Shown here in pieces: positions 1 to 54,971 of a DNA stretch of 64,000 bases. Each line of letters starts with the position of its first letter. Position 1 is the first letter of the stretch. The notes below the pieces were generated by a model. The model saw nothing but the letters and a program-made list of their open reading frames with translations, was not told the DNA's origin and did no database searches. Where the stretch lies: positions 5,180 to 69,179 of the forward strand of contig CAYSHI010000304.1 of the NCBI GenBank assembly GCA_964430745.1, in the 5' to 3' direction. The translations under genes were made by a program, and so were the position numbers. Source of the stretch: an uncultured Acidobacteriota bacterium (GTDB taxonomy: Bacteria; Acidobacteriota; UBA890).

Positions 1-803
1 CTGACGACCTCATCGACTCCACGATCCGGGCGTTCTGCGGCCCCACCGACAGCGTCGCGTTCCCCCGTCCGACGTTTTCCATGATCGAATCGTTCGCCGG
101 CATGAACGGGGTCCCCGCGATCGGCATCGACATGCCGCCTGGGTTCGAGCTCCGTGCCGACGATCTGCTGGCGCCGCGGGCTCAGGTGACCTACGTATGC
201 CGTCCCAACAACCCGACCGGCAACGCGTGCGCCCGAGCCGAGGTGGAGCGACTCGTCGATCGGGCGGCCGGACTCGTGATCATCGACGAGGCCTATGGCG
301 ACTTCTTCGAGGACCCCCTCGCCGCCTGGGCGCCGCAAACCGATCGAGCGGTTGTGTTCCGGACTATGTCGAAGGCCTTCGGGCTGGCCGGATTGCGCGT
401 CGGCATCGCCGTCGGGCCTCCGGCCTTGATCGAGGAGATCGAGAAATCGCGCGGCCCCTACAAGGTCGCGGTGGCGTCGGAATCGGCGGCCGCGGCGGCG
501 CTTCGAGAAGATGGCGACTGGGTGCGGTCCACGGTTGCCGAGGCGGTGGAGGCGCGTGAGTACCTCACGAAAGCGCTCACCGAGCTCGGCCTCGAGGTGT
601 ACCCCTCGGCGGCCAACTTCGTCTTGGTCGCCGCGCCGCACAACGACGCCATGGCTTACAGTCGCGAGCTTGCGGCTGCCGGAATCGGCGTCCGCCCCTT
701 CCCGGGCCTTCCCCACGCGGGCGACTGCGTCCGCGTCACCGCGGCACCGATCCCCTGGATTGATCGTCTGGTCGCACGCACGAAAAAGATGGTCGGCCGA
801 TGA
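1..803 (+). CDS. hisC: histidinol-phosphate aminotransferase, 5' end outside window
   Basis: Reading frame open from base 3; class I/II aminotransferase motif VCRPNNPTGN; directly upstream of hisH in a his operon. Confidence 0.8.
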   Translation, partial: DDLIDSTIRAFCGPTDSVAFPRPTFSMIESFAGMNGVPAIGIDMPPGFELRADDLLAPRAQVTYVCRPNNPTGNACARAEVERLVDRAAGLVIIDEAYGDFFEDPLAAWAPQTDRAVVFRTMSKAFGLAGLRVGIAVGPPALIEEIEKSRGPYKVAVASESAAAAALREDGDWVRSTVAEAVEAREYLTKALTELGLEVYPSAANFVLVAAPHNDAMAYSRELAAAGIGVRPFPGLPHAGDCVRVTAAPIPWIDRLVARTKKMVGR

Positions 804-1411
804 GAGTTTCTCTGTTCGACTACGGCACAGGCAATCTGCACTCCCTCGCCAAGGCGCTGGAACGCTACGGCGCTTCGGTTCGGATCGACGCGGACGCCGG
901 CGCGGTGCTCGACGCTGATGCCATGGTCCTGCCGGGCGTCGGCGCTTTCGGCGCCGCCGCCGCTCGGCTCGATGCCGCCCGCGACGACATCGTTGCGGCT
1001 CTGAACGAAGGCTTCCCGTGCTTGGGGATCTGCCTCGGCATGCAGCTCCTGTTCGAGCACAGCGAGGAGTCGCCCGGTCGCGGTCTCGGCTTCATCGGCG
1101 GGCGTGTGCGACGCCTGAAAGCCCACCGGCTTCCGCAGATGGGCTGGAACGACGTCGATACCGAAACCGCGGAGGGAGCCGGAGACCCCTTCTTCCGACG
1201 AACCGAGCGCGCCGTCGTCTATTACGCCAACACCTACGTGCCCGAGCCTGCGAGGCAGGAGAGGATCATCGCCTGGACAACCTACGAGGGCGACCGCTTT
1301 CCGGCCGCGGTTCGCAAGCGGCGCGTGTGGGGCGTTCAGTTCCATCCTGAAAAGAGCGCCGGCGACGGGCTCGCGATGCTCGAGAACTTCCTCCGCGAGG
1401 CGGCCGCATGA
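800..1411 (+). CDS. hisH: imidazole glycerol phosphate synthase, glutamine amidotransferase subunit
   Basis: 203 aa; GICLGMQLL catalytic Cys motif and HPEKS type I GATase; 4-bp overlap with hisC stop. Confidence 0.9.
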   Translation: MRVSLFDYGTGNLHSLAKALERYGASVRIDADAGAVLDADAMVLPGVGAFGAAAARLDAARDDIVAALNEGFPCLGICLGMQLLFEHSEESPGRGLGFIGGRVRRLKAHRLPQMGWNDVDTETAEGAGDPFFRRTERAVVYYANTYVPEPARQERIIAWTTYEGDRFPAAVRKRRVWGVQFHPEKSAGDGLAMLENFLREAAA

Positions 1412-1427
1412 TCACCGAGGTGCAACG

Positions 1428-2141
1428 ATGATCGTCCATGCCGCGATCGACCTTCGTCAGGGACGCGTGGTGCAGCTGATCGGCGGGCGGCCGGAGGCCG
1501 AGCGCATCAGCCTGCCGAATCCTGTCGCTGTGGCAGTCAGGTTCGTCGAGGAAGGCTTCGAGTCTCTGCATGTGATCGATCTCGATGCTGCGTTGGGCGA
1601 AGGATCCAACGGGCCCGCAGTACGCGAGATCATCGGCTCCGTCGGCGTACCGGTTCAGTTCGGTGGAGGCGTCCGCGACACGAATGCGCTGCGGGCGGCG
1701 CTGCTTGCAGGAGCAACGCGGGTGATCGTCGGAACGCGGGCGATCACCGACTTCGACTGGCTCGCGGAGGCAAGCCGTGCGCATCCCCGACGTGTGCTCG
1801 TCGCCGCCGACACGCGCGGTGAAACCATCGTCACTCACGGGTGGCGGCAAAGCACGTCTCTCGCTGCGGCTGATTTCTTCGATCAGGTCGGTGGATTGCC
1901 GCTCGCCGGCCTCCTGGTCACCGACGTCACGCGGGAGGGAAGCCTTGCGGGCATCGACGCCGCGAAGTTCGCGCGCATGGTGGCCGCGACAGACCTGCCG
2001 ATCATCGCCGCGGGCGGTGTCGGCTCGATCCAGGACCTTCGTGATCTCGACGGTGCCGGCGTCGCCGGCGCCGTCGTCGGCACGGCCCTGTACACCGGCG
2101 CCATCGATCCCGGCGCCGCCGCAAAGGAGTTCAAACGATGA
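1428..2141 (+). CDS. hisA: ProFAR isomerase
   Basis: 237 aa; IDLRQGRVVQL and VIVGTRAI motifs typical of HisA/HisF TIM barrel; operon position. Confidence 0.9.
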   Translation: MIVHAAIDLRQGRVVQLIGGRPEAERISLPNPVAVAVRFVEEGFESLHVIDLDAALGEGSNGPAVREIIGSVGVPVQFGGGVRDTNALRAALLAGATRVIVGTRAITDFDWLAEASRAHPRRVLVAADTRGETIVTHGWRQSTSLAAADFFDQVGGLPLAGLLVTDVTREGSLAGIDAAKFARMVAATDLPIIAAGGVGSIQDLRDLDGAGVAGAVVGTALYTGAIDPGAAAKEFKR

Positions 2142-2680
2142 GCAAGCTGCGGAGAAAGACGAGCGAGACGGAGATCATCGTTACGCTTCGCGCCGGAGGC
2201 GGCGACAGCTCGATCGCCACCACGGAGCCGTTTCTCGATCATATGCTCACCACGCTGGCGCGCTACGGCTCGCTCGACCTCGACGTGGAGGCGTCCGGCG
2301 ATCTGGCGCACCATCTCATCGAGGATGTCGGCATCACCATCGGCGCGGCGCTGCGCGACGAGACCCCGGAGGCCTGCGCCCGCTACGGCAGCGCCACCGT
2401 GCCGATGGACGACGCCCTGGTGCGGGTCGTCCTGGACAACGGCGGGCGCCCCTTCTACGAGGGTCCGCTCCCGGATCGCCACTACGATCACTTCTTTCGC
2501 TCGCTGGCCGATGCCGGTGCCATGACCCTTCACATGCAGGTGATCCGCGGAAGCGACCGCCACCACATCGTCGAGGCGGCGTTCAAGGCGTTCGGCATGG
2601 CGTTGCGACAGGCGCTGCGAACGACCGACAGGGTGTTCAGCACCAAAGGGTCGGTCACTCTCGAGAGACTGGAGGGCTGA
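2138..2680 (+). CDS. hisB: imidazoleglycerol-phosphate dehydratase
   Basis: 180 aa; SETEIIVTL and HHLIEDVGI, HHIVEA Mn-binding His motifs of IGPD. Confidence 0.9.
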   Translation: MSKLRRKTSETEIIVTLRAGGGDSSIATTEPFLDHMLTTLARYGSLDLDVEASGDLAHHLIEDVGITIGAALRDETPEACARYGSATVPMDDALVRVVLDNGGRPFYEGPLPDRHYDHFFRSLADAGAMTLHMQVIRGSDRHHIVEAAFKAFGMALRQALRTTDRVFSTKGSVTLERLEG

Positions 2681-2684
2681 GCGA

Positions 2685-3482
2685 ATGCTGCGCAAGCGCA
2701 TCATCGTTTGCCTCGACGTCCGCGACGGAGAGGTGGTCAAGGGCGTGAAGTTCGTCGAGCTCCGGCACATTGGCGATCCGGCGACGCTCGCCGCCCGCTA
2801 CCAGGAGGAGGGTGCCGACGAGGTCGTGCTTCTGGACATCTCCGCGTCGAGTGACGGACGCAAGACAATGCTCGACGTGGTCCGGCGGACGGCGGAACAA
2901 CTCTTCGTGCCGCTGACTGTCGGTGGCGGCATCAATTCGCTCGACGATATCGCCCGCGTCCTGCGGGCGGGCGCCGACAAGGTGAGCATCAACACCGCGG
3001 CGGTCCAAGCGCCGTCCTTGCTGACGCAGGCGGCCGCTCGTTTCGGTAGCCAGTGCGTGGTGGCGAGCATCGATGCAAAGCTCGAGGGCGACGAATCATC
3101 CGGGCGGCCGGTGCCGAGCGGCTATCGCGTCTTCACGCACGGAGGGAGGACGGCGACAGGCCTCGACGCCATCGAGTGGGCCGCGCAGTGCGCGGAGCTC
3201 GGGGCCGGCGAGATTCTGCTCACCGCGATCGAGAACGACGGCGGCCGCCACGGTTACGATCTGGTGCTGACCCGGGCGGTGGTCGAGGCCGTCTCGGTAC
3301 CGGTGGTCGCCAGCGGCGGCGCGGGCAACGCCGGCCACATGCGCGACGCGCTGCTTGCCGCAAAAGCCGCTGCCGCGCTCGCGGCGGGAATCTTCCACGA
3401 CGAGGTGGTCAGCGTCGGCGAGGTAAAGAAGATACTGGCGGCTGCAGGGGTTCCCGTGCGGCTCACCGAGGTGGCGGCATGA
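2685..3482 (+). CDS. hisF: imidazole glycerol phosphate synthase cyclase subunit
   Basis: 265 aa; [11 protein letters not shown]...VVKG and SGGAG motifs of HisF. Confidence 0.9.
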
Positions 3483-4273
3483 CGCCCGAAAGCCCGCGCG
3501 CCCTCCTCGACATCGCGCTCGACATCGCCCGGCGCGCCGGGGATCGGACGCTGCGCTATTTCCAGTCCGGGCCCGAGGTCGAGATCAAGGCCGACGCGTC
3601 GCCGGTAACCGTCGCCGACCGCGAAGCGGAGCAGCTCGCTCGCGAGCTCATCGAGAAGCGGTTCCCCTCAGATGGCATCGTCGGCGAGGAATTCGGCCGC
3701 ACCAACGCCGGAGCGGAGAGGACCTGGATTCTCGATCCGATCGACGGAACCTTGTCCTTTGTTCAGGGCGTGCCCCTGTACGGAGTGCTTGTTGCCGTCG
3801 AGCAAGGACGCGAAGCCATCGTCGGTGTCATGCATTTCCCGGCGTTGAATGAGTCCGTATACGCCGCCGTCGGCGAGGGTTGCTGGTGGAACGGTGCGAC
3901 CGCCCGCGTTTCGGAGACGGCATCTGTGGAGGAAGCGCTCGTCGTCTGCACCAACGCGGAGGAGATCGAGCGACGCGGGCACCGGTCGGGCTGGGACCTA
4001 CTGCGAGAGCGTGCACGCATGGTCCGCACCTGGGGCGACTGCTACGGCCACGCGCTCGTCGCGACGGGCAGGGCGGAAGCGATGATCGATCCGATCCTGG
4101 CCCGGTGGGACGCGGCCGCTCTCAAGCCGATCATCGAGGAGGCCGGCGGCCGATACACCGATTTCTCGGGCAACGACACCCAACACTCGGACAGCGGCAT
4201 CTCGACCAACGACGCACTGGCCGTCGAGGTGCGCCGCATCCTCGGAGCCAACATCGAGGACTCCCGACAATGA
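3479..4273 (+). CDS. hisN: inositol monophosphatase-family protein, likely histidinol-phosphatase
   Basis: ATG at 3479 overlaps hisF stop (ATGA); IMPase motifs WILDPIDGT and EE..GR; his operon context. The track ORF 3053..4273 is a spurious N-terminal extension. Confidence 0.7.
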   Translation: MTPESPRALLDIALDIARRAGDRTLRYFQSGPEVEIKADASPVTVADREAEQLARELIEKRFPSDGIVGEEFGRTNAGAERTWILDPIDGTLSFVQGVPLYGVLVAVEQGREAIVGVMHFPALNESVYAAVGEGCWWNGATARVSETASVEEALVVCTNAEEIERRGHRSGWDLLRERARMVRTWGDCYGHALVATGRAEAMIDPILARWDAAALKPIIEEAGGRYTDFSGNDTQHSDSGISTNDALAVEVRRILGANIEDSRQ

Positions 4274-4884
4274 TCATCCGAAGCAACGAAGAACTGGACG
4301 GCATCGACTTCGCCAAGGGAAACGGACTCATCCCCCTGGTGGCGCAGGAAGTAAACACCGGAGCGATACGCATGCTCGGCTACGCCGACCGGGCGGCGCT
4401 GGAGATCTCGCTCTCCTCCGGCTTCCTTCATTTCTGGTCGCGAAGCCGGAGCGCACTCTGGATGAAGGGCGCGACCAGCGGCAACACGCTCCGGCTCGTC
4501 TCGCTGCACGTCGATTGTGACAAGGACGCCGCGCTCGCACTGGTCCGGGCCGAGGGGCCGACCTGTCATACCGGGGCAGAGAGCTGCTTCGATGCCGCGC
4601 CGTTTCTGCAACAGCTCGACGTCGTCATCGAGCAGCGGGCCGTCGCCCGCGAGCGCTCGGCGGAAGAAGCCGGCTACACGAACCGCTTGCTGGCCGATCG
4701 CAACCTTCGCCTGAAGAAGATCGCCGAGGAGTCCGGCGAGCTCGTCCTCGCCTGCGCCGACGACGACGCCGGCGCGGTGGCCGAGGAGGCTGCCGATCTC
4801 CTGTACCATGCGCTCGTCGCATGTCGCGCCGCCGGCGTCGGCCTCTCTGACGTCGTTGAGACCCTCCGCAAACGACATTCGTGA
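4270..4884 (+). CDS. hisI: bifunctional phosphoribosyl-AMP cyclohydrolase / phosphoribosyl-ATP pyrophosphatase
   Basis: ATG at 4270 overlaps hisN stop; HisI region (cyclohydrolase-type Cys cluster) followed by HisE-like helical C-terminus (ELVLACADDD...EEAADLLYH). Confidence 0.85.
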   Translation: MIIRSNEELDGIDFAKGNGLIPLVAQEVNTGAIRMLGYADRAALEISLSSGFLHFWSRSRSALWMKGATSGNTLRLVSLHVDCDKDAALALVRAEGPTCHTGAESCFDAAPFLQQLDVVIEQRAVARERSAEEAGYTNRLLADRNLRLKKIAEESGELVLACADDDAGAVAEEAADLLYHALVACRAAGVGLSDVVETLRKRHS

Positions 4885-5300
4885 GCGAACCGTGACCGCA
4901 TCCGCTTCGGAGTCCAAGTTCTACGAGTTCACCCGCGAGCTCGTGGTCGCGCTCGAACGCCTCGAGACGGCATTTGAGGAGCGCGGCATCTTCCCTTGAG
5001 CGCCACCGGCTTGCTGATCATGCAACCGGCGTGCGAGAGTCTGTGAAGTTCGGTTTCGGACATTCGTGGCAATGATTCGGAGATATCAGTGGGAAAAGGT
5101 GATCGACGCACGCGACGCGGGAAGATCTGGCGCAGCTCGCACGGCAAGACTCGCACCCGTCAGCAAGAGCGGGCGCGGGCCCGCCAGCGACACGGCCCCA
5201 AGCCGTCGCAGCTTCAGCAGAAGAACAAAGATACTTAGCAGGCCGTGAAGCGGCCTCTACCTGCCCCCGCGGCGACCCCATGTGGGCGGGTGACGACCTG

Positions 5301-6635
5301 ATGCAGGCGTTCTCTTTCCTCCACTGTGCCGACCTTCATCTCGGGGCGCCGTTCCAGGGCCTGGCCGAGGTCCCCCCCAACCTCGCCAAACGCCTGCGCG
5401 AAGCGCCGATTCAGGCGCTCGACCGGATCGTCTCGACGGCCATCGAGCACCGTGTCGTCGCCGTGCTCGTCTCGGGCGACCTCTTCGACGCCGCCGACCG
5501 GAACTTGCGAGCGCAGATCCAGCTTCGCGACCGTTTGCGCAAGCTCGACGATGCCGGAATCCGCACGCTCATCGCCGCCGGCAACCACGACCCGCTCGGT
5601 AGCGCGGCGGCGAGCATCGACTACCCGCCGTCGGTCCATTTTTTCGGCACAGAGCTGGAGACCGTACCGCTGACCCGCGACGGGCAGCTCCTGGCACACG
5701 TCTATGGCATTTCGTATGGCGCTGCCTCGGTGTCGGAGAACCTCGCGCTCCGGTTCCCCCCCAACCCCGAAGGGCCGTTCTCGATCGCCATGTTGCACAC
5801 CAACGTCGGCGCCCGCGCGGAACATGAGGGCTATTCCCCTTGCTCTCTCGGGGACCTGGAGGCACGAGCCTTCGACTATTGGGCGCTGGGCCACGTCCAC
5901 AAGCGCGAGACGCTGCGCGCCACGCCCCCTGTCGTGCACTATCCGGGGAACACCCAGGGCTTGCACATGAAGGACGTCGGTCCGCGCGGGGCAACCCTGG
6001 TCGACGTGTCAACGTCGGGGTCGATCACATTGTCGCCGGTGTGGACGGACGCGGTGCGCTGGCACCGAGGGCGATCTTCCATCGACCGCTACGAGAGCAT
6101 CGACGACGTCATCACGGCGTTCGACGAGATCAGCTCGCGAACCGCGGCCGAGGCGCCCGACCGATTCCACATCATGCTCTGGACGCTGATGGGTTCCGGC
6201 AAGGTGCACGACAGCCTACGACGCGCGGATACCGTTGCGGGACTGCTGCAATCGCTGCGCGAGCGGCACGCGCCGGAGCCGGCTCCCGGCGCAATCTGGT
6301 TGCAACGCCTCGACGTCGCGACTCGCCCCATGCGCGACATCGAGGAGCTGCGCAAGCAGCAGGACTTGCTCGGCGATCTCTTACGTCTCGCGGAAGAAGC
6401 GCGCGAGAATCCGCCGGCGATGTCGCCCTCCGAGATCGGTGAGGACCTGATTCTAGAGGACCCGCCCGAGGTATCTACGGCGATCAGGGACGAGCTCGGC
6501 ACGCTCCTGGACGACCCACGACTGCGGGCGGTCCTCGGCGGCGACGCCTGGGGCGTTCTCGACTGGCAGAGTCTGCTGCGGCGCGCCGAGGTTCTGGCCG
6601 TTGAGGGACTCCTGGGCGACGACACTGAATCATGA
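5301..6635 (+). CDS. Mre11/SbcD-like metallophosphoesterase nuclease
   Basis: Calcineurin-like phosphoesterase motifs in order: FLHCADLHLG, GDLFD, GNHD, MLHTNV, GHVH. An alternative ATG lies at 5280. Confidence 0.8.
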   Translation: MQAFSFLHCADLHLGAPFQGLAEVPPNLAKRLREAPIQALDRIVSTAIEHRVVAVLVSGDLFDAADRNLRAQIQLRDRLRKLDDAGIRTLIAAGNHDPLGSAAASIDYPPSVHFFGTELETVPLTRDGQLLAHVYGISYGAASVSENLALRFPPNPEGPFSIAMLHTNVGARAEHEGYSPCSLGDLEARAFDYWALGHVHKRETLRATPPVVHYPGNTQGLHMKDVGPRGATLVDVSTSGSITLSPVWTDAVRWHRGRSSIDRYESIDDVITAFDEISSRTAAEAPDRFHIMLWTLMGSGKVHDSLRRADTVAGLLQSLRERHAPEPAPGAIWLQRLDVATRPMRDIEELRKQQDLLGDLLRLAEEARENPPAMSPSEIGEDLILEDPPEVSTAIRDELGTLLDDPRLRAVLGGDAWGVLDWQSLLRRAEVLAVEGLLGDDTES

Positions 6636-9148
6636 TATTTCGCCGCCTACATATCGACGGCTTCGGCATCTGGCGAGACCTCACGCTCGATGGCCTGACG
6701 CCGGGGCTCAACGTCTTCGTCGCCCCTAACGAGGGCGGCAAGACCACCTTGATGAGCTTCGCTCGTGCCGTCCTGTACGGGTTCCGTCAACGCAATCATG
6801 CGGAGCGCTACGAGCCGCTACGGGGCGGAAAGCACGGCGGCTATCTCGAAGTCGAGGAGGGAGGCAGCATCTACCGCATCGTGCGCACGCACGATCGCAG
6901 CTCGCCGGGCGCCCTTCAGGTAACCGACGGGGAGGGAACGGCGCTCCCCGAAAGCACGCTCCCGCGGCTGCTCGGAGGAACGACTCGCGAGCTCTACGAA
7001 AACGTCTTCGCGTTCGGACTCGCGGAGCTGCAGATGATCGAGTCGATGCGCAAAGAAGAAATCGCCTCGCACATTTACAGTGCCGGGATGGCTGCGGCGG
7101 GAGCCGACCCGCTGGGGTTTCGGCAACGTCTCGACGACAAGCGACGCGAATACTTCCTCGAACGCGGAAGAAACCAACAAGTGACCCGCATCTTCGACCG
7201 CATTCAAGCGTTGCAGCGCGACATCGAGCCGCTTCAACAGCTTCCCGAGGAGCACGGCCGCCTGCTCGATCAGGCGGCCACCCTGCGTGACCGCCTCGAG
7301 GGACTCGACGGCGAGCTCGAGATCAAGCAACGGGAGCTCGACGCGGCCCGCAGGGCACGGAGCTCCTGGGGCGATTACGAGGAACTGCTGGCGGCGGAAT
7401 CGTCGCTCGAGGCGCTCGGCGTGCCGCTGGCCTCGGCCAGCCACGCGGAGGCTTCCGACCTGCTTACTGACGGCGAAACCGCGGTGTTGCGCGAGGCGGG
7501 TCGCATCCGCAGCATGCTCGCCTCGACACCACGCCTGCGGGAGCTGCGCGCCGCCGCCGACAAACATGCTTCGGACGCCGACTCCTCGTTCGCCGCACTC
7601 CGTTCGCATCTGGACGATCTGGGCGAGAAGTGGTCCGTGAGGCGGATCCTGAAGACGAACGCGGGGCTGGAACAACGCGAAAAGGCGCGTGAATACGCCC
7701 GAGAGCTGCGTGAGGTCGAGTCCGAAATCGAGCACATCGCGGCACGCGCGGCCGAAGCTCACGATGCCTACGAGACCATCGTCAACCGGCCCGATCCGAT
7801 CAGCCGTGAAGCCGTGATGCTCACGTGGGCGGTGGCCGTGGCGTTGACCTTCTTCAGCGTGTTCATGCCCCTGCCCTCGCGCGTCGTCATTACCTCGGGT
7901 GTGGCGGCGGCCGGTTTCATCGCCGGGACGGTGGCCTACTGGTTGCGTTACCGCGGACGCCAGCAGCTCGATCATGAGCGGGTTGCTTCGGCGGATCGGG
8001 AAACCACGCTCTGGGCGCAACACGAGATCGCCGAAGAGAAGCAGCAGAAGAAGGAAACCGAGTGGCGCAGGTGGCTCAAGCGGCAGGGGCTGGACGCCGA
8101 GCTCACGCTCGACGGGGCCCTCGACCTGCTCGACCGGGTGCGCGAGGCGCAGGAGGTCGCGCGTCGGCACCGGGCGGCGGTCGCCAGCCGCGACAAGTCG
8201 CTCGAGGAGCTCTCGGTCGCTACCGGCAGAGTCAACGCGCTGCTTTCGGATCTCGGGCGAGAGACCGTGCAGGCCAACGAGCGCCCGATGGAAGCCGTTG
8301 AGCTGCACATCGGAAGGCTCGAAACGCTGCAAACCGAGCTCGACTCGGTGGAAGATCAGGACATGCGCTTGCGCAAGGAAATGCAACAGTACGTGCAATC
8401 CCGCGCGGCCTTGCGGGCAAGCGCCGGGGAGGAGGGTCTCGAGCAGCTGCGCGCCCGGCTCGAGGCGCTCGATCCGGACCAGATCGAGCGCGTTCTGCGG
8501 CACGCGGAGACTGCGGTCGCCGCTGTGCAGGCCCAACGCGACGGCGTCAACGAGCAACTGGGGGCCGTCTCCGAGCGCATTTCCCACCTCGAGGGCGACG
8601 GCGAGCTCGGCGATCTGCTGTTGCTGCGCGAGGAAGCTCGCTCCGCGCTCGCCGACGGCGTCAGGACATGGTCGGAGTACACGGCAGCCGCAACGCTGTT
8701 CGACCGAGCGAAGAAGATCTACGAGGAGCAGCGCCAACCGGAAGTACTGCGATTGGCATCCGGATACTTCAACACCATGACCGGCGGCGCGTATCTGCGG
8801 GTAATGGCGCCTCTCGGGGAGATCGACCTGCAGGTCGAGGAATCCAAGACGGGCAAGCGGAAGGGGCCCGAGGCGCTTTCTCGTGGAACCAAGGAACAGC
8901 TTTACCTGGCGATGCGGCTGGCACTCGCGGCGGTCTATGCCGAACAGATGGTCGCGTTGCCCCTCGTTGCCGACGATATTCTGGTGAACTTCGACGATGC
9001 CCGAGCGGCCGCAACCGCGTCGCTGCTGGGTGACTACGCCGACGCCTCGGTGCAGGTTTTGGCCTTCACCTGCCACCAGCGGCTGGCCGAGATGTTCGCC
9101 GCCGAGGCGCCGGGCGCGCGCATAATCGCGCTGCCGAAGCCGGCGTGA
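6632..9148 (+). CDS. Rad50/SbcC-like SMC-type ATPase (YhaN-like) with internal transmembrane hairpin
   Basis: ATGA overlap with upstream nuclease gene; N-terminal Walker A PNEGGKTT; long coiled-coil middle; C-terminal signature LSRGTKEQL and Walker B/D-loop LVADDILVNFDD; two hydrophobic helices (LTWAVAVALTFFSVF / GVAAAGFIAGTVAYWL) mid-protein; no CxxC hook. Confidence 0.8.
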   Translation: MIFRRLHIDGFGIWRDLTLDGLTPGLNVFVAPNEGGKTTLMSFARAVLYGFRQRNHAERYEPLRGGKHGGYLEVEEGGSIYRIVRTHDRSSPGALQVTDGEGTALPESTLPRLLGGTTRELYENVFAFGLAELQMIESMRKEEIASHIYSAGMAAAGADPLGFRQRLDDKRREYFLERGRNQQVTRIFDRIQALQRDIEPLQQLPEEHGRLLDQAATLRDRLEGLDGELEIKQRELDAARRARSSWGDYEELLAAESSLEALGVPLASASHAEASDLLTDGETAVLREAGRIRSMLASTPRLRELRAAADKHASDADSSFAALRSHLDDLGEKWSVRRILKTNAGLEQREKAREYARELREVESEIEHIAARAAEAHDAYETIVNRPDPISREAVMLTWAVAVALTFFSVFMPLPSRVVITSGVAAAGFIAGTVAYWLRYRGRQQLDHERVASADRETTLWAQHEIAEEKQQKKETEWRRWLKRQGLDAELTLDGALDLLDRVREAQEVARRHRAAVASRDKSLEELSVATGRVNALLSDLGRETVQANERPMEAVELHIGRLETLQTELDSVEDQDMRLRKEMQQYVQSRAALRASAGEEGLEQLRARLEALDPDQIERVLRHAETAVAAVQAQRDGVNEQLGAVSERISHLEGDGELGDLLLLREEARSALADGVRTWSEYTAAATLFDRAKKIYEEQRQPEVLRLASGYFNTMTGGAYLRVMAPLGEIDLQVEESKTGKRKGPEALSRGTKEQLYLAMRLALAAVYAEQMVALPLVADDILVNFDDARAAATASLLGDYADASVQVLAFTCHQRLAEMFAAEAPGARIIALPKPA

Positions 9149-9238
9149 GCCGGCCTGAGCCGGTTGTCTGTCGCGGGCGAATGAGGTAGGGATTAGCTGC
9201 TGAGAGACCATTTCGATCGACGCACTCCGGGGAATTTC

Positions 9239-9943
9239 ATGAGCGACAAGAAACACGCTTCGACGGATTCCAACGACTGCGGCAAGGAGACAAGGAGCAA
9301 CGTCTCGCGCCGCGGTTTCATCAAGGGGCTCAGCGCCGGGGGCATCGGCTCCGCGCTCGCTCCCACGGCGGTGTTGGGAGCCGGGACCATCGCCACCGCC
9401 GGAACGCTCACGGGAGGCTCGGCGCAAGAGGGCGAGGTTTCGGGCCCCGGGAAAGTGCCCATCCGACTGCAGGTCAACGGAGGGATGGTGTCCGTCGAGG
9501 TGGAGCCCCGCCAGACGCTGCTCGACGTGCTGCGGCAGGATCGCGGCGTAGACGGTGAGTACATCGACGTTACGGGGAACAAACGAGTCTGCGACCGCGC
9601 CAGTTGCGGCGCTTGTTCAATGCTCGTGGACGGCCGCCTGACCTACGGTTGCACGATGCTGGCAATCGAAGCTCAGGGGGTCGAGATCACGACCGTCGAA
9701 GGACTCGGCAGCCCCGATTCGATGCACGCGGTGCAGCAAGCGTTCGTAGAAATGGATGCCCTGATGTGCGGCTTCTGCACGCCGGGAATGGTGGTGGCAG
9801 TCGCGGCCTTGCTGGAGGACAACCCCGATCCGACACGAGAACAGATCCGCCGGGCACTCGACGGCAACCTGTGCCGCTGCGGCACCTATCCACGGATCTT
9901 CGAAGCCACCGAAACCGCCGCGGCACGGCTGAGGGGGGCCTGA
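9239..9943 (+). CDS. molybdenum hydroxylase small subunit, [2Fe-2S]-binding, Tat signal
   Basis: Twin-arginine motif SRRGFIKG; two Cys clusters CGACSMLV...C and CGFCTPG...CRCGTY typical of CoxS/PaoA/XdhA ferredoxin subunits. Confidence 0.85.
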   Translation: MSDKKHASTDSNDCGKETRSNVSRRGFIKGLSAGGIGSALAPTAVLGAGTIATAGTLTGGSAQEGEVSGPGKVPIRLQVNGGMVSVEVEPRQTLLDVLRQDRGVDGEYIDVTGNKRVCDRASCGACSMLVDGRLTYGCTMLAIEAQGVEITTVEGLGSPDSMHAVQQAFVEMDALMCGFCTPGMVVAVAALLEDNPDPTREQIRRALDGNLCRCGTYPRIFEATETAAARLRGA

Positions 9944-9945
9944 TC

Positions 9946-12288
9946 ATGGCGAAACGAACCGAAATCCCTGGTGTGCGACCCGGGCAGCCGCGCGACAGCG
10001 AATCCGTCCGCGAGCGCCTCGAGGTCGAGAACCCCCGTCTGCGAAAGGCTGCCGAAGCGGAACGAGCAGAAACCGTCGAGCGCTGGGCCCAGGATGCCGC
10101 ACAACCGCGCGAGTGGTCGTGGCCGAGCGAGCGTCGCCTCATCGGGCAGCGGATTCCGCGGCTCGATGGAGCGTGGAAGGCGACCGGCAGGGCGATCTAT
10201 TCGTACGACATCAACCGGCCCCGTATGTGCTACGGCAAGATGCTCCGTTCCCCGCACGGCCGGGCGAGCGTCGTCTCGATCGAGACCTCAGCGGCCGAGG
10301 CCGCGCCCGGCGTCGTCGCCGTCGAGACAATCGCCGAACCCGGAGCGACGCTTCGCTATCACGGCGACCCGATCGCGGCGGTGGCGGCAGAGACCGAAGA
10401 GCAGGCCCGCGATGCGTGCCGCATGATCGAGATCCGCTACGACCTCCTACCGCACGTGGTCACCGAGGAGGACGCGATGCTGCCCCGCGCGCCGCAGGTG
10501 CACGAGGACGGCAACATCCGGCTCGGCACCGCCCGAGAAGAGGGAGACATCGGCGCCGGCCTGGACGGCGCCGACGTGACCTTCGAAGGCGTGTTCCGCA
10601 CGCAGGTGCAGACCCACAGCTCACTCGAGACACACGGTGTCGTGGCCGAGTGGAACGGCGATCACCTGACGGTTTGGGCCTCGACTCAGGGGGTGCACGC
10701 CGTCAAGGACGGGTTGACCGGCTACTTCGAGATCCCCGCCACACAGGTGCATGTTCAGACCCCGGTGATGGGCGGCGGTTTCGGCTCGAAGCTCGGCTCC
10801 GGCATCGAGGATGCAATGGCTGCGGTGCTCGCTCGCCAGTCCGGCCGACCCGTGAAGATGCTGCTGGAACGGGACGAGGAGCACCTCGATACCGGTAACC
10901 GACCCTCCGCGGTCGCCCGCGTCCGCGCCGGCGTCTCCGCCGACGGGCGACTGACGGGATTCGAGGCCACCAGCTACGGCACCGGCGGGATCACCAGCGG
11001 CGCCAACTTCCCGTTGCCCTACATCTACTCGGTGCCGAACTCGCGCACCCAGGGATCCGCCATCTACATCAACGCGGGCAACCAGCGTGCCATGCGCGCC
11101 CCGGGGCACCCGCAGGGATCGTTCATCATGGAAGCGGTGATGGACGAGCTCGCCGCTCTCGTGAGCATGGATCCCGTGGAGTTCCGCAAGCTCAACGTGC
11201 CGACGGATTCGCTCTGGAGCGATCAGCTCGACCTCGGCGCCGAAGCGATCGGCTGGAGTGACAACTGGCATCCACCGGGGGACCCGACTCCGGGACCGAT
11301 CAAGAAGGGGCTGGGCTGCGCGATCTCGACCTGGGGCAGCGGCGGCGGTCGCACCCAGGCGTTCTGCCGCATCCATCCCGACGGCTCCGTGGAGATGAAC
11401 ACCGGCACCCAGGACATCGGCACGGGCACCCGCACCATCGTGGCGATCGTTACCGCCGAGATCCTCGGCTTGGAGGTCGAGGACATCACCGTCGGTATCG
11501 GCAACTCAGACTTCCCGTATTCCGGTTCCTCCGGCGGCTCTACGACGATCCCCTCGGTGTGCCCGGCCGTCCGCGTCACAGCGGGACTGGCGCTCGAAGC
11601 GCTGTTCGGTCGCATTGCCCCGGCGCTCGGCGCCAGTGCGGATCAGCTCGAGGCCCGCGTCGGCGGGATCGGCATCGTCGGCGACACGTCGACCTCCTGG
11701 AGCTGGAGGGAAGCCTGCTCGCGTCTCGGCACTGAACCGGTCTCCGTCGACGGCCAGTGGCAACCCGGCCTCTCGGCGCGCGGCGTGAACGGCGCACAGT
11801 TCGCCGCCGTTTCCGTCGATATCGAAACCGGCGTGGTTACCGTCGACAAGCTCGTTGCGCACCACGATTGCGGCATGGTCGTCGACGAGCTCACCGCGGA
11901 AAGCCAGGTCAACGGCGGCTTGATTATGGGACTGAGCTACGCGCTCTTCGAGGAGCGCATCATGGATCGACCGACCGGTCGCATGGTCAATCCCAACCTC
12001 GAGACCTACCACATCGCCGGCCCCTCGGACATGCCGGAGTTCGACGTCAACATGATGGATGTGCCCGACCGCGGCGTGCTCGGGCTCGGCGAACCCCCGA
12101 CGATCCCGACGGCCGCGGCCATCGCCAACGCGGTCGCGAACGCCATCGGGGTGCGCGTGCACTCGTTACCGATAACGCCCGAGAAGGTCGTAGCGGCGCT
12201 CGAAGAGGGCCCCGAGGCGACACTACAGGGAACTCGTTTCGATCTTCTCGACGCGGCCATCGCTGCAGAAGGGAGTGAAGGCCGATGA
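9946..12288 (+). CDS. molybdenum hydroxylase large subunit (molybdopterin-binding, aldehyde oxidase/xanthine dehydrogenase family)
   Basis: 780 aa; ATG at 9946 just after small-subunit stop; a/b hammerhead then Moco-binding domains (GGGFGSK, QGSAI..NAG..RAPG); the track ORF 9604.. is an N-terminal extension. Confidence 0.85.
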   Translation: MAKRTEIPGVRPGQPRDSESVRERLEVENPRLRKAAEAERAETVERWAQDAAQPREWSWPSERRLIGQRIPRLDGAWKATGRAIYSYDINRPRMCYGKMLRSPHGRASVVSIETSAAEAAPGVVAVETIAEPGATLRYHGDPIAAVAAETEEQARDACRMIEIRYDLLPHVVTEEDAMLPRAPQVHEDGNIRLGTAREEGDIGAGLDGADVTFEGVFRTQVQTHSSLETHGVVAEWNGDHLTVWASTQGVHAVKDGLTGYFEIPATQVHVQTPVMGGGFGSKLGSGIEDAMAAVLARQSGRPVKMLLERDEEHLDTGNRPSAVARVRAGVSADGRLTGFEATSYGTGGITSGANFPLPYIYSVPNSRTQGSAIYINAGNQRAMRAPGHPQGSFIMEAVMDELAALVSMDPVEFRKLNVPTDSLWSDQLDLGAEAIGWSDNWHPPGDPTPGPIKKGLGCAISTWGSGGGRTQAFCRIHPDGSVEMNTGTQDIGTGTRTIVAIVTAEILGLEVEDITVGIGNSDFPYSGSSGGSTTIPSVCPAVRVTAGLALEALFGRIAPALGASADQLEARVGGIGIVGDTSTSWSWREACSRLGTEPVSVDGQWQPGLSARGVNGAQFAAVSVDIETGVVTVDKLVAHHDCGMVVDELTAESQVNGGLIMGLSYALFEERIMDRPTGRMVNPNLETYHIAGPSDMPEFDVNMMDVPDRGVLGLGEPPTIPTAAAIANAVANAIGVRVHSLPITPEKVVAALEEGPEATLQGTRFDLLDAAIAAEGSEGR

Positions 12289-13295
12289 AAGCCTTCGAAT
12301 ACGTTGCTCCGACCAGCGTCGAAGGGGCGGTGAATCGTCTCGAAGAGCGGGCGGGTGAGTCGCAGCCGCTCGCCGGCGGCATGGACATCATCGGACTGAT
12401 GAAAGACTACGTGCTGCAGCCCGAGCGCATCGTCGCGCTGCGCGACGTCGGCGACTTGCGTGGCATCGAACCAACGGCGGACGGCGGACTACGCATCGGC
12501 GCCATGGTGACGGTGGCTGAGATCGCCGCCGACGAGCGCATCCGGGCGAACTGGCCGGCCCTCGCCGCAGCGGCCGGCGAAGTCGGCACGCCGCAGATCC
12601 GCAACCGCGGCACCATCGGCGGCAACCTCTGCCAGCGCCCGCGCTGCTGGTACTTTCGCTCCGAAGCCTTCACCTGCCTGCGCAAGGGCGGGGCCGCGTG
12701 CTTCGCCGTCGACGGCGACAATCGCTACCACGCCATCTTCGACACCGCCCCCTGCCCCATCGTGCATCCATCGAACTGCGCCATCGCGCTGCAGGCATAC
12801 GGGGCCGGCGTCACCGTTGCGGGGCCCGGCACCGCCGACGAGCCGGTCAGGCTCGAGAGCATGTCGATGGCCGACTTCTTCGTCCGCCCGGCGCGCAACA
12901 TCCGCCGCGAGAACGTGCTGACCGAAGATCAGATCGTCACCTCGATCGAGCTACCCGCGGCCGGCGGCGTGTCCGCTACGTACACCATCAAGCACAAGCA
13001 ATCGCACGACTGGCCGCAAGCGATGGCGACGGCGGTTCTCGAAATGGACGGCACCACCGTGACCTCCGCCAGCATCGTGATGGGCGCGGTGGCGCCGATT
13101 CCGTGGCGCTCGGACGCGGCGGAGCAGTCGATCACCGGCCAGACTGTCTCGGTGACCACCGCCGAGGCAGCCGCCGACGCGGCGGTCGCAGACGCCGAAC
13201 CACTCGACCACAACGCCTACAAGGTGCGGCTCGCTCGCACCGCGGTGAAGCGCGCCATCCTCGAGGCCGCCGGCATCGACTGGGCCACCGGGTAA
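12285..13295 (+). CDS. molybdenum hydroxylase FAD-binding medium subunit
   Basis: 336 aa; ATGA overlap with large subunit; FAD-binding PCMH motifs AGGMDIIGLMK and RNRGTIGGNLCQ (CoxM/PaoB/XdhB-like). Confidence 0.85.
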   Translation: MKAFEYVAPTSVEGAVNRLEERAGESQPLAGGMDIIGLMKDYVLQPERIVALRDVGDLRGIEPTADGGLRIGAMVTVAEIAADERIRANWPALAAAAGEVGTPQIRNRGTIGGNLCQRPRCWYFRSEAFTCLRKGGAACFAVDGDNRYHAIFDTAPCPIVHPSNCAIALQAYGAGVTVAGPGTADEPVRLESMSMADFFVRPARNIRRENVLTEDQIVTSIELPAAGGVSATYTIKHKQSHDWPQAMATAVLEMDGTTVTSASIVMGAVAPIPWRSDAAEQSITGQTVSVTTAEAAADAAVADAEPLDHNAYKVRLARTAVKRAILEAAGIDWATG

Positions 13296-13305
13296 GCAGG
13301 AGGCA

Positions 13306-13533
13306 ATGATGAGCGATTCGAATGTCCAGCCCAAGACGGCCGCCTGCCGCTGCTTTCGCACGCGCATGATGTTTCTCCCGGAGCAAGAAGCCGACCCGCA
13401 TACCTACGGCTTCGAGTTATCCGATGTGGGCCATGTCTGGTGCCAGAAGACGCTCCGCGTGATGGGCCCCGATGACGGGTTGGTGGCCGAGGAGAAGTGC
13501 GAGCCGGGAAGGCAGTGCTTCGAGGGCTTCTGA
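13306..13533 (+). CDS. small Cys-rich hypothetical protein (75 aa)
   Basis: Good RBS aggagg 8 bp upstream of ATG; 5 Cys (CRCF...C...C..C); no recognisable family. Confidence 0.4.
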   Translation: MMSDSNVQPKTAACRCFRTRMMFLPEQEADPHTYGFELSDVGHVWCQKTLRVMGPDDGLVAEEKCEPGRQCFEGF

Positions 13534-13616
13534 TTCGACCCCGTTCGGTTCCAGCCGCGTAAATCACGCCCCCGCAGGCTGATTTTGTCAGCCCTGCCCG
13601 ACGCCCGGGGTAGTGT

Positions 13617-13888
13617 TAGTGTGCTGTCTCCAACATAGCTTGACACTTGCAGAGGGAATTGCGGGCGAGATCAAGGAAGGGCGAGGAAGGCGATGCTTCG
13701 GCATCGTCGACGAGCCCTGACGCCGAGATCGCGCGCAATCTCCTCTGCCCGCAGGGTAGCGGCGGGACGGGGCGATTCCTTTGTCGCGGCCCCTCGACGA
13801 TGTTTGAACATCGCCGTCGTCGCCTCTCCGCGGACTCGCCCCGTCGCGCTCGCTACAAGTGTCAAGCTATGTTGGAGACAGCACACTA
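13617..13888. repeat. perfect 33-bp inverted repeat (13617-13649 / 13856-13888) flanking a 206-bp imperfectly palindromic core; MITE-like or cruciform element
   Basis: Left arm tagtgtgctgtctccaacatagcttgacacttg is the exact reverse complement of the right arm. The inner arms are also near-reverse-complementary, each with its own hairpin (gatgcttcggcatc / gatgtttgaacatc). Track ORFs beginning MSSYVGDSTL on both strands are mirror artefacts. Confidence 0.8.
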
Positions 13889-13958
13889 GAGTCGGTTTCT
13901 CGTCGCCCCTTGTCTGTCGAAATCACGATCACGCGGAGTCAAGATGGAGAACGTTACG

Positions 13959-14624
13959 ATGCGGAAAACTGCTGCCTGGACGGTGCTTGTAACCCTGGCG
14001 ATCTCGTCGATCGCGATTGCCGCGCCCACGTCGGACCTCGAAGGAGTCTACGTGGAGGCTCGCTCGGCGCAGGTGTTCATCGGCGGCTGCATCTGGAACT
14101 CCGAAGCCATGACGATAGGGCGCGAGGCGGTCATGGCATGGCGAATCGACAAGGGCTCCATCGAGGGTGTCGACGTCGCCGGTCTTTCGATCGTGGCCGC
14201 GATCGCCGGAGACGAGAACCTGGCGATCAATCCCGAAGCCGCCCGACGCACCGTTCTGTTTGTCGACCACCATGCGAGCAATGCGCAGCAGGAGGCGCTC
14301 GCCGACCGCTACGCGACGGACAACGCTCGCATGTTCGGCCAGGTAATCGAAGTCGTCGCCGTGCCGATCTCCTTCGTGGACACGCCCGAGGGCTATCGGG
14401 TGAACGCCGGCGACCAGGTGGAGCTCGAGGCCAAGGCGCTGCACGTCGATCACAAGGGCCTCAATCAGTGCGGTGAGGCACAGTGGTACGAGCCCTTCGT
14501 CGCGCTGAACGATTCCACTCTGGGCATCGCCGTCGAGCATTCCTATCAGGGCAAGACGCTCAGCACGCGGTGGAGCGACCCCGACAAGCAAAGCGCATTC
14601 TTCGGCCGCTTCGGCTCCTCATAG
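13959..14624 (+). CDS. secreted hypothetical protein
   Basis: Signal peptide MRKTAAWTVLVTLAISSIAIAAP; no recognised motif. Start taken at the second ATG of track ORF 13944. Confidence 0.55.
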   Translation: MRKTAAWTVLVTLAISSIAIAAPTSDLEGVYVEARSAQVFIGGCIWNSEAMTIGREAVMAWRIDKGSIEGVDVAGLSIVAAIAGDENLAINPEAARRTVLFVDHHASNAQQEALADRYATDNARMFGQVIEVVAVPISFVDTPEGYRVNAGDQVELEAKALHVDHKGLNQCGEAQWYEPFVALNDSTLGIAVEHSYQGKTLSTRWSDPDKQSAFFGRFGSS

Positions 14625-20881: not shown

Positions 20882-22501
20882 CTATTGCACCCCGTAACGA
20901 CGCAGCTTCGACTGCAGCGTCGTGCGCGGGATGTCGAGCATCCGTGCCGCTTGGCTGATGTTGCCCTTGGCCATCGACAACACCTTACGCAGGTGGGCGG
21001 CGGTGGCACCGTCGAGGCTGAGGCTCTCGCGGCCGGCGCCGTTCCCGGCCCGCGCGAACGAACTCTTCCCGACCGTGCCCGCCGGCACAATCGCCAGGTC
21101 TGCAGCCGGGTAGACATCGGTGTTCCAGCCGCTCGAGCCGTCCATCGTCCGGCCGCTGCCGTTGTTGCGCCCGTTGCTCACCGAGCGCCCGTTGCTGTTC
21201 GATCTACCACTCCTGCCTGAACGCGGGTTGCCGTCGGACGGCGTGCGTCCGTTGGGGTTCCCGCTCCCGGAGGAGTCGTTTCCGGCCGCCCGAAACGCTC
21301 CCTGAAGACCCTCGGTGGCATCGGCCTCAGGTGCGCGCGTGGGCGAAGGAAGCAGCGTCAGCCGGGCGCCCGGCGCATGGCCACGAGGCGGATCCGACAG
21401 CCCCGGAAACGGAATGGACTCGATGCGTCCGGAGCAGGCCGTCGCGGCGGCGCGCAGCACGAGGTTGCGCAACTCGCGCACGTTGCCCGGAAACGGGTAC
21501 CCCAACAAGCTTCCGAGCGCTTCAGACACGAGCTCCAGCGATTGTCCCCAACGTTCCTCGAGAACACGGACGAAGTGACGTGCCAACACAGGGATGTCGT
21601 CTAGCCTGTGGCGCAACGGTGGTACATCGATCGTCAGCGACGTCAGGCGGTAGTAGAGATCGCTGCGGAACCGGCCTGCGGCTACGTCCGCCGCGAGATC
21701 GCGGTTGGTGGCGGCGATGATGCGTACGTCGATCCGCTGCATGCGTCCCTCGTCGCCGAGTTGCTGCATCTCGCCGTATTCGAGGACACGCAACAAGGCC
21801 GCCTGCAGACCCGGTCCCATCTCGCCGATCTCGTCGAGGAACAGTGTCGCCCCATCGGCAATCTCGAAGCGTCCGCGCTGGTCGCGGACGGCGCCCGTAA
21901 AGGCGCCACGACGATGCCCGAACAGCTCGCTGGCAATGAGCTCGTCCGGCACCGCGGCGCAGTTGATGGTGCTGAGCGGCAGGTCGTTGCGAGAGCTGAC
22001 GCAGTGCACCATCTGCGCGATGAGCTCCTTGCCGACGCCGGTTTCTCCCTGGATCAGCACGGGCTCGTCCAACGCTGCATAGCGGCGTGCCAGCATCTCG
22101 ACGTGTCGAATACCCGGGCTGTGCCCGACGATGGTCTGCTGCAGACCTTCATCGCCGAGGCACCGGCGCGCTTCCCAGGTTGCCAGCATCTCGGCAACCC
22201 GCGCAGCATGCTCGTGCGCCGATCCGTTGACGGGCTCGGCCGCCTCCAGACCGACAGTGCCGCATACGCGTCCGGCAAGATCGACCGGAACCTCTACGCC
22301 ATACGGGTACCGGGACGCCGCGGGATCTCCGGCCGCCTCGACGGTGTGGGCCTGGAGCTTCGCCCAGGCTCGTCGGGCGCCGGGGGCGGTGAGACAATCG
22401 CTCGCCGCCGCATGAAGTGCCGCCTCGCGATCCGCATCCTGCGGAGGACGGCATAGGAACTCCAACAGTCCAGACTCGGCCAGGTTACCGGCCTGCATCA
22501 T
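20882..22501 (-). CDS. sigma54-dependent transcriptional activator (EBP) with N-terminal sensory domain and long low-complexity linker
   Basis: AAA+ sigma54 activator motifs GETGVGKE, GAFTGA, ESELFGH..GAFTGA; C-terminal Fis-type HTH; a linker of roughly 110 aa rich in S/G/N/R with NGRS repeats. Confidence 0.9.
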   Translation of the reverse strand: MMQAGNLAESGLLEFLCRPPQDADREAALHAAASDCLTAPGARRAWAKLQAHTVEAAGDPAASRYPYGVEVPVDLAGRVCGTVGLEAAEPVNGSAHEHAARVAEMLATWEARRCLGDEGLQQTIVGHSPGIRHVEMLARRYAALDEPVLIQGETGVGKELIAQMVHCVSSRNDLPLSTINCAAVPDELIASELFGHRRGAFTGAVRDQRGRFEIADGATLFLDEIGEMGPGLQAALLRVLEYGEMQQLGDEGRMQRIDVRIIAATNRDLAADVAAGRFRSDLYYRLTSLTIDVPPLRHRLDDIPVLARHFVRVLEERWGQSLELVSEALGSLLGYPFPGNVRELRNLVLRAAATACSGRIESIPFPGLSDPPRGHAPGARLTLLPSPTRAPEADATEGLQGAFRAAGNDSSGSGNPNGRTPSDGNPRSGRSGRSNSNGRSVSNGRNNGSGRTMDGSSGWNTDVYPAADLAIVPAGTVGKSSFARAGNGAGRESLSLDGATAAHLRKVLSMAKGNISQAARMLDIPRTTLQSKLRRYGVQ

Positions 22502-35296: not shown

Positions 35297-35300
35297 GGGC

Positions 35301-45870: not shown

Positions 45871-45885
45871 GGAGGGTCGCGCCTC

Positions 45886-53622: not shown

Positions 53623-53653
53623 GCGTCGGCTGCTCGGTGCGAGCCCATCGCCC

Positions 53654-54969: not shown

Positions 54970-54971
54970 CC

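Follow-up and report, generated by a model that had tools for sequence, protein, structure and literature searches.

The locus at 5301-9148 of a 64,000-nucleotide stretch of DNA from an uncultured Acidobacteriota bacterium (contig CAYSHI010000304.1; hereafter the window, meaning the whole stretch that was analyzed) encodes a nuclease and an ATPase of the Mre11-Rad50 (SbcCD) type, in which the ATPase has a hydrophobic segment where Rad50 carries its zinc hook. This raises the questions of (i) whether that segment is a membrane anchor; (ii) whether the pair is a canonical SbcCD or belongs with the YhaO/YhaN (SbcF/SbcE) proteins of Bacillus; and (iii) whether it serves DNA repair, DNA uptake or defence. 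We conclude that the locus is an unremarkable chromosomal representative of YhaO/YhaN, a widespread but little-studied DNA-end-processing pair, and that the predicted membrane hairpin of its ATPase is a rule of this family and not special to the window locus. The pair is probably a divergent Mre11-Rad50-type machine whose ATPase is tethered by this hairpin.

Both genes lie on the plus strand. The nuclease open reading frame (ORF) covers 5301-6635 (444 codons), starting with ATG at 5301 and the N-terminus MQAFSFLHCADLHLG (MQAFSF...). An in-frame ATG at 5280 would lengthen the protein by seven residues; because close homologues are 444 residues long and begin with MxAFSF, we place the start at 5301. 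The ATPase ORF (6632-9148, 838 codons) begins within the nuclease stop codon: the two genes overlap by the four nucleotides ATGA at 6632-6635, read directly from the sequence, and an identical four-nucleotide overlap joins the corresponding genes of the Bacillaceae locus described below. Translational coupling, which an earlier first-pass annotation of the sequence had proposed, is thus borne out. Codon-position G+C in both ORFs (0.81-0.83 at third versus 0.45-0.47 at second positions) follows the pattern of this genome's real genes, the window as a whole having a G+C content of 64-69%. An antisense ORF of 869 codons at 6818-9427 (minus strand), which spans the entire ATPase gene, was rejected as a gene, as its codon-position G+C is not gene-like and marks it as a shadow of high G+C content.

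The central hydrophobic segment of the ATPase

The only cysteine of the window ATPase is C814, and CxxC motifs are absent from this protein as well as from the 120 best homologues listed. CxxC motifs in two other relatives (L051 and L007) were considered as hooks and rejected, since they lie off the apex and are incidental. Residues 394-438 of the window ATPase consist of two hydrophobic runs, AVMLTWAVAVALTFFSVFMPLPS (394-416) and VVITSGVAAAGFIAGTVAYWL (418-438), separated by R417, the single charge in 45 residues; charged residues make up 2% of this segment versus 35% of either coiled-coil arm. It is flanked by NRPDPISRE on the N-terminal side and by RYRGR (R439-Y-R-G-R443) on the C-terminal side. 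The first run, encoded at 7811-7879 (+), is a predicted transmembrane helix with the turn P412-L-P-S416 at its end (Kyte-Doolittle (KD) 19-mer peak 2.14; simple Hessa sum -0.88 kcal/mol), and the second, encoded at 7883-7945 (+), is a predicted transmembrane helix continuous with the descending coiled-coil helix (KD 19-mer peak 1.73) that is marginal on the Hessa scale (+2.6 kcal/mol). Every other 19-mer of the protein has a simple Hessa sum of at least +6.6 kcal/mol. Marginal hydrophobicity is common in the second helix of a hairpin, and transmembrane helices are annotated for YhaN in sequence databases. In an AlphaFold2 (AF2) model, a helix at 392-411 and a helix at 414-484, the latter running into the descending arm, are separated by a two-residue break (P412-L413); the two hydrophobic helices are joined by the five-residue turn PLPSR, which contains P412 and P414, and W399 is conserved in at least 90% of sequences. 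'Transmembrane' is used here for a prediction from the Kyte-Doolittle and simple Hessa scales plus conservation, and by every sequence criterion applied residues 394-438 are predicted to form a transmembrane hairpin.

This feature is found throughout the family. Among the 120 best homologues, 118 show a mid-protein hydrophobic peak. Of 141 further representatives listed from an exhaustive profile search, 140 show it too, and the exception scores 1.59 against a threshold of KD 1.6. The search covered 1.84 billion cluster representatives (clusters at 50% identity) and yielded 14,172 proteins at E <= 1e-30. Loci with the pair occur in Acidobacteriota, Planctomycetota, Chloroflexota, Nitrospirota, Nitrospinota, Desulfobacterota, Myxococcota and Bacillota and in Methanosarcinales/Methanomicrobiales archaea, the archaeal members having the hydrophobic segment as well; the family, with its more than 14,000 clusters, extends to eight or more bacterial phyla and to methanogens among the archaea. 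In 98 of the 120 homologues the hydrophobic stretch measures 40-54 residues, a length that would accommodate two membrane-spanning helices and little more than a turn between them. Its flanks contain, per 12 residues, 2.4 lysines and arginines on the N-terminal side and 3.5 on the C-terminal side, where the net charge is +1.8, and this enrichment on both sides fits a hairpin with both ends in the cytoplasm. Between distant members the segment has diverged in sequence; what is kept is its length, its hydrophobicity, a tryptophan at its start (often within P-x-W-P) and an arginine or lysine directly after it, and the KD peaks are 2.5-3.1 in many family members.

Could the same 45 residues instead form the buried apex of a soluble complex, as a hook-like dimerisation core in which two protomers contribute to a four-helix bundle? 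The marginal second helix would be compatible with such a core, and two observations on SbcE, the YhaN of B. subtilis, point in this direction: its isolated central domain was described simply as 'insoluble', and SbcE-YFP (a yellow fluorescent protein fusion) formed highly mobile foci on the nucleoids, moving from pole to pole within a minute, with a membrane location not reported (PMC2811018). GxxxG motifs, which suit tight helix packing, occur in 84 of 107 stretches versus 35 ± 4 in shuffles, but this excess is gone in the distant subset (27 of 48 versus 23.8 ± 2.8); as it thus reflects shared ancestry, we also dropped GxxxG as evidence for dimerisation of the hairpin. A soluble core is, moreover, at odds with a single charged residue in 45, with a length held to that of two membrane-spanning helices while the sequence itself drifts, with the height of the KD peaks, and with features typical of a lipid interface, namely lysine or arginine on both flanks and tryptophan or P-x-W-P at the start of helix 1. 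We consider a soluble apex unlikely.

Several claims of the first-pass annotation can be judged at this point. It had noted the missing CxxC hook and two consecutive hydrophobic helices near residues 390-435, and both observations hold, the helices being located at 394-438. Its proposal of a membrane-anchored machine stands as far as the hairpin is scored as such by all sequence criteria applied, with insertion being a prediction. A tether of this kind, which it called unusual for a DNA-end-processing complex, is indeed so in comparison with canonical Mre11-Rad50/SbcCD, but is the norm within the pair's own large family.

Catalytic motifs and family membership

The nuclease consists of a phosphoesterase domain, a capping domain and C-terminal helices (Pfam Metallophos, E = 6.7e-10). 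Aligned to Mre11 of Pyrococcus furiosus (PfMre11), it has motif I as D11-L-H13 (5331-5339; D8/H10 in PfMre11), motif II as G59-D60 (5475-5480; GD), motif III as G94-N-H-D97 (5580-5591; GNHD), motif IV as H166 (5796-5798; MLH) and motif V as G197-H-V-H200 (5889-5900; GHIH), all on the plus strand. Motif I is nearly invariant in the homologue alignment, while motifs II, III and IV and residues G197, H198 and H200 of motif V are invariant in 45 homologues. In the alignment to PfMre11, its metal-binding and catalytic residues are all matched, by D11/H13, D60, N95/H96, H166 and H198/H200. An AF2 model from the homologue alignment (pLDDT 88.7, pTM 0.79) gave only Mre11/SbcD chains among its top 50 Foldseek matches in the PDB (best 5dny_A, E = 7.5e-17), including full-length Mre11 from Mre11-Rad50 complexes with up to about 450 aligned columns. 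No hydrophobic segment was found in the nuclease, where KD peaks no higher than 1.25 and simple Hessa sums stay at or above +9.6.

The ATPase matches Pfam AAA_27 and AAA_23, the AAA_27 model (PF13514) scoring 65.4 bits on residues 1-200 versus a Pfam cut-off of 22, and its close homologues are labelled 'uncharacterized protein YhaN' by the Joint Genome Institute. Its head motifs, again on the plus strand, are Walker A (A31-PNEGGKTT-39, 6722-6748; N33, E34, G36, K37 and T39 invariant), the ABC (ATP-binding cassette) signature (L749-SRGTKEQL-757, 8876-8902; S750, G752 and Q756 invariant; aligned to LSGGERIAL of P. furiosus Rad50, PfRad50), Walker B with the D-loop (L778-VADDILVNFD-788, 8963-8995; D781, D782 and D788 invariant; aligned to LILDEPTPYLD of PfRad50) and the H-loop (T813-C-H815, 9068-9076; C814 and H815 invariant). 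The family motifs NExGKTT, LSRGTxEQL, DD[IV]LVNFD and TCH are all present, and are invariant in alignments of 32 and 65 homologues. Walker B reads DD where Rad50 has DE: D782 aligns with the catalytic glutamate of PfRad50 and is invariant in the family, whose profile reads lvlDDiLVNFD, which suggests an altered, possibly slow, ATP hydrolysis. Together with the phosphoesterase motifs, the Walker A, LSRGTKEQL signature and Walker B/D-loop motifs are those that the first-pass annotation had listed for an SbcD-like protein and an SbcC/Rad50-like ATPase.

The AF2 model of the ATPase (pLDDT 85.4; pTM 0.48, as expected of a long rod) combines long helices with a split ABC head. In the PDB, Foldseek ranks Rad50 first for this model (7zr1, E = 4.5e-15), with Smc5/6, MukB and JetC behind it, and the family profile in turn matches P. 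furiosus Rad50 (E = 1.8e-10). The coiled-coil arms are unequal in this model (ascending arm 183-384, about 200 residues; descending arm 439-716, about 280), and helices 439-484, 493-540 and 552-601 could, speculatively, pack with 346-384 as a membrane-proximal bundle. A further head motif, RYEPLRGGxHGG (residues 59-70, 6806-6841), is family-specific and nearly invariant; G65, G69 and G70 are invariant, R54, Y60, P62 and H68 are present in at least 90% of sequences, and no counterpart was found that could be aligned in Rad50.

The comparison with Bacillus was made through a stand-in, the locus of the Bacillaceae species Alkalihalobacillus bogoriensis (L029), in place of B. subtilis YhaN. There, a Metallophos protein (410 residues) overlaps an AAA_27 protein (972 residues), followed by a two-component pair, an OB+HD protein (322 residues; YhaM-like architecture) and prsA, an order that we take to be that of the Bacillus yhaO-yhaN-yhaM neighbourhood. 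The window nuclease aligns end to end with its L029 counterpart, including the C-terminal domain, at 29% identity (E = 3e-70), the ATPase heads align at identities of 32% and 41% (E = 2e-26 and 3e-39), and the head motifs of the window ATPase are common to the L029 protein. The assignment to the YhaO/YhaN type made at first pass is accordingly upheld by the AAA_27 score, by a nuclease that resembles a syntenic Bacillaceae YhaO along its entire length, and by the structural matches to Mre11 and Rad50.

It might still be argued that the pair is a diverged SbcCD orthologue that lost its hook, as both folds are those of Mre11 and Rad50 and as NCBIfam models for SbcD, Mre11 and Rad50 do give weak matches. 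These matches, however, are far below the equivalog cut-offs (Mre11_Sulfo, 57.9 vs 500; SbcD TIGR00619, 52.9 vs 77.65; PRK10966, 32.3 vs 450; Rad50 PRK03918, 29.1 vs 700), AAA_27 is above its cut-off, and no CxxC is present; the ATPase is not a hook-containing SbcC. Furthermore, the invariant family-specific motifs NExGKTT, RYEPLRGGxHGG and DD[IV]LVNFD are common to the protein at the YhaN position in Bacillaceae, the family holds its more than 14,000 clusters in its own right, and B. subtilis has both SbcCD and SbcEF (PMC2811018). We regard descent from SbcCD by simple loss of the hook as extremely improbable. NCBIfam is uninformative as a test for YhaN, because even the L029 Bacillaceae ATPase matches none of its models, nor does a protein named 'YhaN family protein' by the Prokaryotic Genome Annotation Pipeline (PGAP). 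Searches of the window with phmmer and with profiles revealed no second Mre11-like or Rad50-like gene.

Assignment to the YhaO/YhaN family connects the locus to published work on B. subtilis. Krishnamurthy et al., in whose study YhaN was named SbcE and YhaO SbcF, reported that SbcE lacks CxxC and has a 'unique central domain' that is conserved, hydrophobic and insoluble and contains a conserved proline; that deletion of sbcE reduces chromosomal transformation to 5% and renders cells sensitive to double-strand breaks, an effect synergistic with recN and sbcC; and that in competent cells both SbcE and SbcF concentrate at the pole, SbcE in a ComK-dependent manner (PMC2811018). In addition, yhaONM belongs to the SOS-regulated LexA regulon, and YhaN and YhaO interact in the two-hybrid system (PMC2731908). 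The nuclease-ATPase complex and its roles in repair and transformation are known only from these B. subtilis genetics, microscopy and two-hybrid experiments (PMC2811018, PMC2731908). By analogy, the pair is likely to serve double-strand-break repair at the stage of presynaptic processing and, where the organism is competent, the handling of incoming DNA. The first-pass annotation had suggested a role at the envelope, in DNA uptake or defence, rather than in recombinational repair. The uptake part has a precedent in SbcE, but the proposed exclusion of repair is contradicted by the same protein, which contributes to double-strand-break repair as well as to transformation (PMC2811018).

If the pair is, as we think probable, a YhaO/YhaN machine with a membrane-tethered ATPase, the nuclease would be an Mn2+-dependent Mre11-fold phosphoesterase whose C-terminal helices probably bind the base of the ATPase coiled coil, as the fold and the B. 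subtilis two-hybrid interaction suggest. The N- and C-terminal halves of the ATPase form one Rad50/SMC-type ABC head and are connected through a long antiparallel coiled coil, at the tip of which two hydrophobic helices of about 20 residues would insert in the cytoplasmic membrane as a hairpin with both ends cytoplasmic. This would leave the nuclease-ATPase heads suspended in the cytoplasm from a coiled coil a few tens of nanometres long, and two hairpins could associate within the bilayer, replacing the apex dimerisation provided by the zinc hook. On ATP-driven engagement, the heads would close on DNA as a clamp and the nuclease would act on its ends in the manner of Mre11-Rad50/SbcCD, except that only DNA near the membrane would be within reach. 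Going further, we tentatively entertain the idea that the hairpin is an ancient, pan-prokaryotic replacement of the zinc hook that closes a Rad50-like ring in the bilayer and acts on DNA ends at the membrane, so that YhaON would constitute a second, spatially separate end-processing pathway. The ends concerned could, with the same reserve, be those of DNA entering by transformation, conjugation or phage infection, or chromosome ends attached to the membrane.

Several observations weigh against a tethered YhaO/YhaN machine at this locus. Membrane insertion is predicted from simple hydropathy scales and conservation, and the second helix is not only marginally hydrophobic but rich in Gly, Ala, Ser and Thr. 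A minority branch of AAA_27 proteins (P0090, P0110, L051 and a Sphingorhabdus plasmid protein) has no hydrophobic segment, which implies that the anchor is not essential to the chemistry of the head, and the family-wide exchange of the Walker B glutamate for aspartate means that ATPase kinetics may differ from those of Rad50. At the window locus, neither a LexA-box-like sequence nor a yhaM-like gene was found: the boxes GAACN4GTTC (the Gram-positive type) and GTTCN7GTTC (the alphaproteobacterial/Acidobacterium type of LexA box) do not occur in 4885-5300, their window-wide counts equalling chance, and the OB/HD exonuclease gene is missing here as it is from most non-Firmicute loci. To these points must be added the nucleoid foci of SbcE-YFP described above, and the apparent confinement of functional data on the family to Bacillus.

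Chromosomal setting of the pair

Upstream of the pair lies a his operon (81-4884; hisC/H/A/B/F, an inositol-monophosphatase-type gene and hisIE), followed by a gene for ribosomal protein Thx (bTHX) at 5089-5238 (+; 49 codons, VGKGDRRTRRGKIWRSSHGKTR; Pfam PF17070, E = 1.9e-11) that ends 62 nucleotides before the nuclease gene. The Thx ORF is short enough to escape mechanical ORF lists with a length cut-off. One base past its stop, at 5240-5256 (+), is a G+C-rich hairpin with a 6-bp stem (AGGCCG-tgaag-CGGCCT) and no T-run, which could act as a terminator lacking a U-tract between the Thx and nuclease genes; a scan for consensus terminators did not call it. Downstream, at 9239-14621, are an oxidoreductase trio of the xanthine-dehydrogenase type (Fer2_2, MoCoBD and FAD_binding_5) and then a DUF1326 gene.

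The closest named relatives are metagenome-assembled genomes of Acidobacteriota. At a locus with an 86%-identical ATPase (L086), the pair follows the same his operon, with a glutamate dehydrogenase gene replacing Thx and without the oxidoreductase trio, while at another locus (L001, 41% identical) the downstream oxidoreductase block is kept. This retention of synteny points to vertical inheritance. Neighbourhood conservation, a check proposed with the first-pass annotation, was assessed over 80 loci: about 70 of them carry nuclease and ATPase together, and no third gene is conserved across the set. The only neighbour that recurs, at 9 of the 80 loci, is a UvrD/PcrA- or AddA-like helicase. These helicase genes (L026, L061, L037, L072, L050, L015, L012, L019 and L048) are mostly upstream and on the same strand, and that of L015 has a PD-(D/E)XK nuclease domain and is AddA-like.

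An SMC-like ATPase combined with a nuclease also brings to mind anti-phage or anti-plasmid systems such as Lamassu, Wadjet and Gabija, and a membrane position might be thought to serve interception of entering DNA. PADLOC indeed gives weak, partial matches for the ATPase (E >= 3.8e-6), namely LmuB over the coiled coil only (24 bits, E = 3.8e-6) and GajA/PtuA over the P-loop only, and JetC and LmuB are among the lower-ranked Foldseek matches of the ATPase model. However, PADLOC has no match for the nuclease, genes for partners in such systems are absent from the locus, and the flanking genes serve histidine biosynthesis, the ribosome and a xanthine-dehydrogenase-type operon, with synteny kept in relatives. 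The recurrent neighbour is a helicase of the repair type, and the B. subtilis operon is controlled by the SOS response (PMC2731908). The family is also rare on plasmids (63 of 72,556 records match, all with less than 80% of the query covered and some being mislabelled chromosomes) and nearly absent from phages (five records match, of which four are unannotated 'Listeria phage' contigs of 5.6-23.4 kb, possibly host DNA). A relative without the transmembrane segment, a 'YhaN family protein' on a Sphingorhabdus plasmid (L084, NZ_CP022549.1, 3013-6498; KD maximum 0.9, no CxxC), adjoins genes for an AAA ATPase and a Fic protein and HipA-type genes, and is in more defence- or toxin-like surroundings than the anchored branch. 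A defence function of the window pair is, in our judgement, very unlikely, and the defence half of the proposed envelope role finds no support in the weak PADLOC matches, the housekeeping context or the scarcity on plasmids and phages. We conclude that the pair at this locus is a vertically inherited chromosomal housekeeping module and not a mobile or defence element.

Elsewhere in the window we noted an exopolysaccharide-type cluster at 43657-57731, with a Wzz/GNVR tyrosine-kinase-like gene (43657-45867), a Wzy_C O-antigen-ligase-like gene (45886-47328) and a Glycos_transf_4 gene (56169-57731), and two sigma-54 activator genes on the minus strand (20885-22501 and 33761-35446).

Relation to known systems

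Taken by itself, the window locus matters little, being one more chromosomal copy, in an Acidobacteriota-like genome, of a family named in 2009. What merits following up is the under-studied, family-wide anchor: a very large, cross-domain family has a predicted membrane hairpin nearly always where Rad50 dimerises through zinc, and the literature searched treats this segment only as an 'insoluble, hydrophobic central domain', with no description found there of a membrane hairpin or anchor. Should the anchor be real, an Mre11-Rad50-type nuclease would be held at the membrane, which would bear on the processing of incoming DNA and of membrane-proximal breaks and on how SMC-like rings can close without a hinge or hook. 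The family-invariant aspartate in place of the catalytic glutamate of Walker B is a second testable feature.

With LmuB of Lamassu, JetC of Wadjet and GajA of Gabija, the window pair has in common a coiled-coil ABC ATPase combined with a nuclease; unlike Lamassu, Wadjet, Gabija and PbeABC, it gives only weak, partial model matches, has no system partners and no defence-island context, and shows a vertical, chromosomal distribution.

The closer likeness is to SbcE/SbcF. The window pair differs from its only Bacillaceae comparator, L029, in having a shorter ATPase (838 versus 972 residues), an identity of only 32-41% that is limited to the head, and coiled coils that cannot be aligned; the yhaM operon and LexA control, not found in the window, are a feature of Bacillus and not of the family at large. 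In common with SbcE/SbcF are the module of a nuclease followed by an ATPase, the AAA_27 head with the same invariant motifs, the absence of CxxC and, in the ATPase, a central domain that is hydrophobic, contains a conserved proline and separates the two coiled-coil arms.

With Mre11-Rad50 and E. coli SbcCD, finally, the pair shares the Mre11 phosphoesterase fold and its catalytic residues (motifs I-V), the Rad50-type ABC head (Walker A, signature, D-loop and H-loop), the long antiparallel coiled coil, and the organization as adjacent, co-translated genes. It departs from Rad50 in its DD rather than DE at Walker B and in the family-specific motifs of its head, and the zinc hook that Mre11-Rad50 and SbcCD carry as CxxC at the apex is replaced in the window ATPase by the predicted transmembrane hairpin.

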